From IMG/VR virus record IMGVR_UViG_3300025389_000011: DNA of 64,000 nt; one strand, given 5' to 3'. A program made the translations under genes and the position numbers. The stretch comes from a virus. Its lineage: Duplodnaviria > Caudoviricetes. Under the pieces are notes generated by a model. That model had not been told where the DNA came from. It saw nothing but the letters and a program-made list of their open reading frames with translations, and searched no databases. Numbering within the stretch: the stretch's first letter is position 1; every line of letters begins with the position of its first letter. Shown here in pieces: positions 15,117 to 15,351 of this stretch.

Positions 15117-15351
15117 AAAAGAATGGTAACTGGGTTTTCTTGGTTGTATCTAAATTATTCTCTATCAGTTCATTAATGAGTTTTCTTTCTTCCATGGACA
15201 TATTCAATACGTCCTCGTATGAGACTCCGCCCCTCATGTACCAGCTAAAGCTAAATGCAGATTTTCGTATAGAGGTACATTCTTTTTCCATATCATCTAA
15301 CAGCTTTTGAACCTTCTCGGGTTCAAGGTACAAAAGCCTTATCCGAAAAAA
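15115..15351 (-). CDS. gp51-like tail/baseplate assembly domain, probably made as the -1 frameshift extension of the upstream ORF
   Basis: WYMRGGVSYEDVLNMSMEERKLI resembles gp51. The frame is open from the slippery site (TTT TTT CGG ATA AGG CTT TTG...). The annotated start is only a TTG at 15333, buried in a hairpin. Confidence 0.7.
   Translation of the reverse strand, partial: FFRIRLLYLEPEKVQKLLDDMEKECTSIRKSAFSFSWYMRGGVSYEDVLNMSMEERKLINELIENNLDTTKKTQLPFF
15303..15351 (-). promoter_or_regulatory. -1 programmed ribosomal frameshift signal: T TTT TTC, 7-nt spacer, stem-loop
   Basis: Heptamer at 15351-15345. Stem GCTTTTG(15337-31)/CAAAAGC(15309-03), one U-U mismatch, then ACCTT(15329-25)/AAGGT(15315-11). 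Confidence 0.75.

Follow-up and report, generated by a model that had tools for sequence, protein, structure and literature searches.

A window of 64,000 nucleotides from an uncultured, giant T4-related phage of the Caudoviricetes (IMG/VR record IMGVR_UViG_3300025389_000011; "the window" below means this whole stretch) encodes a protein similar to gp26 of phage T4, and the 3' end of its gene very probably carries a programmed -1 ribosomal frameshift. The site is located in what is presumably the phage's only gene of the PF12322 (gp26/gp51) family. Most ribosomes would read GAT TTT TTC GGA TAA and release a short form of 276 amino acids (aa), and in a minority of them the two tRNA-Phe on UUU UUC would slip back by one base in tandem, with a pause probably caused by the stop codon one codon ahead and by a hairpin 6 nucleotides (nt) downstream. 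The slipped ribosomes would translate 76 further codons of the -1 frame, giving a minor long form of 351 aa with a four-helix C-terminal extension. Both forms would act as non-structural assembly factors of the baseplate hub/tape-measure module, their ratio being set by the efficiency of the slip. The ribosomal nature of the slip, its efficiency and the biochemical role of the products are inferred.

On the minus strand, the gp26-like gene ends with GAT (15353-15351), TTT (15350-15348), TTC (15347-15345), GGA and the stop codon TAA (15341-15339). This stretch (15353-15339) contains the canonical X XXY YYZ slippery sequence T TTT TTC, as an earlier note on this DNA had proposed. The same note stated that a TGA of the -1 frame stands just before the heptamer and that the frame is open from there on, and this was borne out as well: the TGA is at 15354-15352, immediately 5' of the heptamer, and the frame stays open down to 15117-15115. 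From the slip onwards it encodes FFRIRLLYLEPEK and so on, the first residues being F F R I R L L Y L E P E K. The predicted products of 276 aa and 351 aa (275+76) agree with the sizes given in the note (276 aa and a fusion of about 351 aa), and the junction peptide predicted for the longer one is ASDFFRIRLLYLEPEK. The only early start codon in the -1 open reading frame (ORF) of the window is a TTG (15333-15331) with an AAGG sequence 3 nt upstream. Coordinates of the features are collected in Table 1.

Table 1. Location of the gp26-like gene, the elements of the predicted frameshift site, the neighbouring tape-measure-like gene and the tandem gene pairs of other, uncultured phages
Feature	Position	Strand	Remarks
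gp26-like gene, zero-frame short form	15339..16169	-	276 aa; stop TAA 15341-15339; PF12322; two CxxC pairs
Slippery heptamer T TTT TTC	15345..15351	-	X XXY YYZ register; one codon ahead of the zero-frame stop
-1 frame extension	15115..15345	-	76 codons and stop TAA 15117-15115; its translation by slipped ribosomes would complete the 351-aa long form
Candidate stimulator hairpin	15302..15338	-	6 nt 3' of the heptamer; includes TTG 15333-15331
Tape-measure-like virion protein	16274..19717	+	Divergent neighbour; 1147 aa; glycine zipper; GH19-type lysin domain
Tandem PF12322 gene pairs, uncultured phages	L029:411-2389; L030:3980-5963; L031:4097-5990		Long form in frame

The nearest cultured relatives of the gp26-like protein belong to jumbo myophages (29-34% identity), namely Atu_ph07, Phosso, 121Q/PBECO4, Rak2-type Klebsiella phages, XbC2/CBB, PA5oct and Eneladusvirus, and 23 closer uncultured relatives at 31-63% identity are present in IMG/VR. 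A DNA-level search of a phage collection with the locus gave no match, and the relatives could be reached at the protein level only. At the conserved Phe-Phe, T TTT TTC stands in register in 28 of 28 jumbo-phage loci, as well as in PA5oct, Yersinia phage fHe-Yen9-04, KVP40, P-SSM2 and S-PM2, and in 82 of 82 cyanophage/KVP40-type loci of IMG/VR; in Xoo-sp13 and Stenotrophomonas phage CM1 the run is T TTT TTT. The slip site and the -1 register, whose conservation in relatives the earlier note had named as a check and whose lack it had named as a refutation, were kept in all homologues examined. The pattern NNT-TTT-TTC was seen in all 23 distinct jumbo-phage sequences, and the share of lineages expected to have it, given the encoded amino acids, is about 0.66 x 0.66 x 0.34 = 0.15, as calculated from codon usage in the remainder of these genes (Phe TTT:TTC 174:88; NNY codons of D, H, N and S, T:C 680:346). 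Since about 15% was expected and the pattern is fixed in every jumbo-phage sequence and in 82/82 loci of the other type, the codon choice at the heptamer is, by this measure, more than chance. Third-position entropy is 0 in the three heptamer codons only, and lies between 0.7 and 1.75 bits at other third positions. The zero-frame stop follows the heptamer by one codon in all cyanophage/KVP40-type loci and in 22 of the 28 jumbo-phage loci, and by up to 12 codons in the others; as the position of the stop varies among the latter, the heptamer is more constant than the stop.

Heptamers were also seen in other settings. A very distant homologue in LR756511, a 595-kb uncultured phage (L037:2693-2920), has GGT TTT TTC in register, after which the zero frame continues for another 21 codons to a stop that overlaps an ATG (TAATG); its -1 frame gets to the ..P-I-N-E-R-K-Y-I.. 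helix only past a non-conserved linker. P-SSM2 has a second in-register heptamer, A AAA AAG (L043:2145-2151), 42 nt ahead of the gp26 stop, where the -1 frame closes within a few codons and slippage would yield a truncated product only.

Right after the heptamer, the -1 frame encodes R-h-R-L-L, in which the Arg (CGN) and Leu (CTN/TTR) codons vary synonymously, and the same nucleotide changes are non-conservative in the zero frame (G/A/E/D/V). The entropy by codon position is 1.19/0.70/1.49 for -1 codons 1-18 and follows the same pattern, at 0.85/0.56/1.41, in the remainder of the ORF, and the mean column identity of the extension alignment (A3) is 61%. Judged from this pattern of substitution, the -1 frame codes for protein as early as its first codon past the slip. 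A search of 1.84 billion proteins with the extension profile gave 491 matches at E <= 1e-3, of which 186 were at E <= 1e-10.

No start codon or Shine-Dalgarno sequence of the -1 ORF was conserved across the relatives compared. The first ATG, GTG or TTG of the frame is at codon 19 in many relatives and at codons 31-37 in L011, L014, L016 and L027, where initiation would lose nearly half of the conserved domain, and among the matches of the profile search gene callers begin the small ORF at no fewer than 12 different positions. With no conserved start and with called starts so scattered, independent initiation is not the general mechanism. An ATG does overlap or adjoin the stop in Atu_ph07, Phosso, 121Q, XbC2, L007, L008, L010 and L023, and in XbC2 the peptide is conserved upstream of this ATG; where an ATG overlaps the stop (Atu_ph07, Phosso, 121Q and KVP40), independent initiation may contribute. 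In the deposited genome of PA5oct the -1 ORF (L033:1522-1758) is without any annotated coding sequence, and of the -1 ORF of Atu_ph07 (L001:3337-3567) only a 40-codon piece is annotated.

In some phages the extension is joined to the gp26-like protein in frame. Among the best 150 of the 491 profile matches, 21 have the extension at the C-terminus of a protein of 319-351 aa (one of them being a fragment of 167 aa), with a junction of ..F-R-x-K-L-I... The sequences of these proteins are divergent and are therefore not homopolymer sequencing errors, and their existence indicates that the two parts work as one chain. In three of three contexts (L029, L030 and L031) the long in-frame gene is located directly 3' of a second PF12322 gene (294-319 aa); because of this arrangement, the clade is read as encoding the short and long forms as two genes. 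The short tandem paralogues end with ..NFFTDNK*, ..DFFAK* and ..NFLPME*, and two of the three carry a T-run at the FF codons (AAT TTT TTC; GAT TTT TTT), where the -1 frames do not open into an extension. These T-runs may be relics of a former slip site. A single PF12322 gene is present in each of nine heptamer-bearing genomes (two complete and one 77%-complete jumbo-phage genomes of IMG/VR, 121Q, Atu_ph07, PA5oct, KVP40, P-SSM2 and S-PM2), compared with two in T4.

The hairpin downstream of the heptamer (15338-15302) was predicted by RNAfold to have 8 bp including a closing G-U pair, a U-U mismatch, 5 bp and a 9-nt loop, with an energy of -14.8 to -16.9 kcal/mol and z of about -2.2 to -2.4. 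The hairpin described in the earlier note is thus present, with 13 bp in total and a spacer of 6 nt in place of the 12 bp and 7 nt given there, where the closing G-U pair had been omitted; the statement that it hides the TTG start of the small ORF holds, as this codon (15333-15331) sits in the 5' arm. Among 14 close relatives, the outer 7-bp stem is retained in 12-14, with 2 compensatory pairs. For the full 13-pair structure 74.7% of cells are paired, compared with 36-52% in controls with slid partners, and the observed covariation score was reached by 14 of 500 shuffles. Many close relatives have strong individual hairpins at a spacing of 5-7 nt, with z as low as -4.6, and folding of distant relatives gave no clear hairpin in L004, L020, L024, L026 and L027. 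The hairpin is therefore well kept among the closer relatives and not among the distant ones, and is treated here as a putative lineage-specific stimulator, not as a defining part of the site.

The AlphaFold model of a natural long form (P0162, made with alignment A4) reached a predicted local distance difference test score (pLDDT) of 89.3 and a predicted template modelling score (pTM) of 0.82. In this model, the extension consists of four helices (residues 271-345), starting exactly at the F-R junction. The short form of the window, modelled with AlphaFold 2 (pLDDT 87.8, pTM 0.82), ends where the first extension helix begins. Fold matches of the model of a long-form homologue in BFVD were 'baseplate hub (assembly)' proteins, and a fold search of the AFDB clusters gave only uncharacterised or 'baseplate' proteins of phages and prophages. 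Foldseek comparison of the long-form model with the PDB gave no match at E <= 0.001, and the VIA wide search gave a best Z of 5.9, to short generic helical segments only.

The two predicted products resemble the products of two separate genes of T4. PF12322 matches T4 gp26 (208 aa) throughout (E 9e-64) and residues 1-201 of T4 gp51 (249 aa; E 4e-52), as it does the protein of the window (E 1e-16). T4 gp26 ends with ..EFFELL*, three residues past FF, and the short form of the window one residue past it; gp51, like the long form of the window, runs beyond the FF-equivalent position with a C-terminal tail, which is of 48 residues and has its own family, PF28602, in newer Pfam releases. By this layout T4 gp26 is the counterpart of the short form, and T4 gp51 that of the long form. 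In T4, these are two diverged paralogous genes (20% identical) on opposite strands, whereas the window has one gene and a predicted frameshift; the Phe-Phe of T4 gp26 is encoded by TTC TTT and therefore gives no slip site. The tail of gp51 (48 aa) is also shorter than the extension of the window (76 aa) and weakly similar to it: hhalign places the extension at the correct position with a weak E of 1e-3 to 1e-2 (1.2e-3 to 5.5e-3 in the comparison where a reversed control gave 0.5), HMMER matches of the extension to gp51 were not significant, nor was the match of A3 to the single T4 gp51 sequence, and the HMMER profile of the extension scored only 5-8 bits against gp51 proteins of Tevenvirinae, always at the C-terminus.

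As the direct HMMER matches are weak, the link between the extension of the window and gp51 rests on its position and on a bridge through KVP40 and the cyanophages. KVP40, P-SSM2 and S-PM2 have one gp26 gene each, which, as in the window, carries T TTT TTC one codon ahead of the stop ([GAT/AGT/TCT] TTT TTC Gxx TAA) and is followed by a small -1 ORF of 55-60 aa. Unlike that of the window, this ORF is annotated as an independent gene, a 'truncated gp51' that GenBank calls 'gp51 baseplate hub assembly catalyst' (see the notes to KVP40.0327 and PSSM2_015), and its product is clearly of the gp51 type, equivalent, as in the window, to the C-terminal region of gp51 only. The GenBank record of KVP40 states that the small ORF resembles only about 40 C-terminal residues of T4 gp51. 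By hhalign, the -1 peptides of KVP40 and the cyanophages match residues 202-249 of the gp51 family with a probability of 93.6% and an E of 2e-7, and phrog_634 unites them with the T4 gp51 tail (E 6e-28, 3e-20 and 8e-11). The label 'gp51-like' given to the small ORF by the earlier note is therefore acceptable through these homologues, the window's own link being weak, and the jumbo-phage extension can be described as a divergent, longer version of theirs. Cyanophage and vibriophage gp51 have been described as lacking the first approximately 200 residues, in a report that gives no explanation for it and does not mention a frameshift (Sullivan et al. 2010, PMC3037559). If the slip occurs as proposed here, the missing residues would come from gp26.

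Several points weigh against a programmed ribosomal frameshift. Because of the T-runs in two short paralogues, the codon pattern at the heptamer may be partly a legacy or reflect AT bias. Distant relatives have a weak hairpin or none, covariation supports the structure only moderately, and the extension of the window is tied to the T4 gp51 tail only weakly by hhalign. In the relatives with an ATG that overlaps or adjoins the stop, independent or coupled initiation could add to or replace slippage, and the T6 run could equally support transcriptional slippage, with the same protein as the result.

In the latter case RNA polymerase would add one U on the T6 run, and an mRNA with one extra U would, as read from the sequence, encode the identical ..DFFR.. 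junction. The conserved homopolymer run, which is T7 in Xoo-sp13 and CM1, is in line with such a mechanism. Efficient transcriptional slippage usually needs 8-9 or more T, so six is a short run, and in every one of the 28 + 82 loci the run keeps strictly to the X XXY YYZ register and is followed by C in the seventh position. Most close relatives also have the hairpin at the canonical spacing of 5-7 nt, and the adjacent zero-frame stop is found in 22/28 jumbo-phage and all cyanophage/KVP40-type loci. The register, the seventh base, the hairpin spacing and the adjacent stop matter to a ribosome and not to RNA polymerase, and they favour a ribosomal slip, which makes the transcriptional explanation improbable in our view.

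Slightly less probable still is that the downstream ORF is translated separately, by coupled initiation or by termination-reinitiation, giving a free peptide of 58-75 aa and leaving the T-run as mere Phe-Phe codons. This could account for the ATGA or TAATG at the stop in Atu_ph07, Phosso, 121Q, XbC2 and KVP40, for the ATG soon after it in P-SSM2 and S-PM2 and for the annotation of such small ORFs in GenBank, and Phe-Phe is conserved even in T4 gp26, which has no heptamer. It does not account for the invariant synonymous sites of the heptamer in more than 100 loci, for a peptide conserved from codon 1 in many relatives without a start before codon 19, four of them without one before codons 31-37, or for the one-chain function indicated by the in-frame long forms; in the window, the only early start is the TTG that the hairpin encloses, and the spacing of its AAGG is poor. 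A chance juxtaposition, with the -1 ORF unexpressed or non-functional, was rejected because of the conservation seen: the 76-aa extension is retained widely (the 491 matches at E <= 1e-3), shows coding periodicity and is fused in frame elsewhere, and the probability left to this explanation is negligible.

The assignment of the 276-aa protein to the gp26/gp51 family is based on Pfam PF12322, T4_baseplate (E 1.2e-16, 61.5 bits with a cut-off of 24.5, profile positions 38-218 of 219), and on phrog_150 'baseplate hub' (E 1e-17, profile positions 10-232 of 282). The small -1 ORF of the window matched no curated family. The CxxC pairs of the window protein are at C110/C113 and C256/C259; in the long-form alignment A4, four cysteines forming two CxxC pairs are invariant (C87, C90, C256 and C259 of P0162), suggesting a structural zinc site in the gp26/gp51 family. 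T4 gp26 retains C-x-C and CxxC, and T4 gp51 retains one CxxC and an adjacent CC. In Yersinia phage fHe-Yen9-04 the gp26-like gene (L035:689-1564) bears the name 'Lead, cadmium, zinc and mercury transporting ATPase', presumably on account of the CxxC motifs.

The divergent neighbour of the gp26-like gene matches phrog_794 and phrog_167 'tail length tape measure protein', phrog_181 endolysin and PF00182, and is followed by a T4-type portal gene. The opposite side of the gp26-like gene is occupied by genes of an endonuclease VII-like nuclease and gp46/gp47, and gp5-like and gp25-like baseplate genes, a prohead protease and a major capsid protein are encoded farther away; of the 30 larger ORFs scanned in the window, none was recognised as a tail tube gene. 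The Rak2/PA5oct-type relatives examined (121Q, XbC2, PA5oct and CBB) have the same order of portal gene, gene of a large structural protein and divergent gp26-like gene. In T4, gp26 and gp51 are both counted among the hub assembly chaperones, and the latter is not found in the particle (Leiman et al. 2010, PMC3004832). The homologues CBB_249/250 are absent from the virion list of CBB obtained by mass spectrometry, and the homologue in PA5oct is not flagged by this method. From T4 genetics, the location beside the tape-measure-like gene, the synteny with the portal and the gp5-like and gp25-like genes and this absence of homologues from virion lists, we infer that both forms serve as assembly chaperones of the hub/tape-measure module; the tape-measure-like protein is their presumed client. 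The gene directly upstream of gp26 in KVP40 (KVP40.0329, L050:2140-2886) is annotated as a duplicated tail-tube-like protein, and its product is a possible partner of the chaperone pair.

Programmed -1 frameshifting characterises the tail assembly chaperone (TAC) genes of long-tailed phages of the lambda, P2 and Mu types, and the slip site of P2 E/E+E' is T TTT TTG. The conservation of the frameshift in TAC genes, such as that of lambda gpG/gpGT, is reported by Xu, Hendrix and Duda (2004, as cited in PMC9024508). As in lambda, the predicted slip of the window is near the 3' end of a short assembly-factor gene and would produce a minor, C-terminally extended form with the same N-terminus; the gene adjoins a tape-measure gene, and the products of its relatives are apparently non-structural. 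Unlike lambda G, it is divergent from the tape-measure gene (16274..19717 on the plus strand, 15339..16169 on the minus strand), as the earlier note had stated, and is located neither directly upstream of it nor between the tube and tape-measure genes. The protein is also about twice as large as gpG and carries a pair of CxxC motifs resembling a Zn ribbon. No similarity to TAC families or folds was detected by Pfam, which gave PF12322 only, by Foldseek against the PDB or by the VIA searches, although the lack of a structural match to the models does not exclude a likeness to TACs. The equivalence to G/GT proposed by the earlier note stands for the logic (two forms by a -1 slip, the tape-measure neighbour and the apparently non-structural products) and is only putative as regards homology or binding.

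The gp26/gp51 family might be the functional counterpart of G/GT in the T4 lineage, a reading that we regard as possible rather than probable. The abundant short form would keep the tape-measure protein competent for assembly, and the helical extension of the rare long form would dock the complex onto the nascent hub/tube initiator, with the frameshift setting the ratio of the two. The slip would be ancestral in T4-related phages (jumbo phages of the Rak2/PA5oct/Atu_ph07 type, KVP40 and cyanophages), and T4 and the tandem-gene clade would each have replaced it by gene duplication independently.

The small 'gp51' ORF, the gp26/gp51 family and -1 frameshifting in tail assembly chaperone genes were already known. 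No described frameshift in gp26/gp51 or in hub genes of jumbo phages was found in the literature, where coverage of subscription journals was thin, and none of the GenBank records inspected annotates a frameshift between gp26 and the -1 ORF. To our knowledge, T4-type phages have not been reported to share the -1 frameshifting of chaperone genes. The predicted site would mean that the same genetic device is used by an unrelated protein family, in the hub/tape-measure module of T4-related phages. The locus would also be incompletely annotated in hundreds of deposited genomes, with the long product missing and the small ORF mis-started or absent. The slip would explain the apparent gp51 stubs in many T4-like phages, those of cyanophages and vibriophages being an oddity recorded in 2010 (PMC3037559), and would recast T4 gp26 and gp51 as the short and the long version of a single ancestral product, thereby offering testable hypotheses for gp51, a protein whose function has long been unknown.

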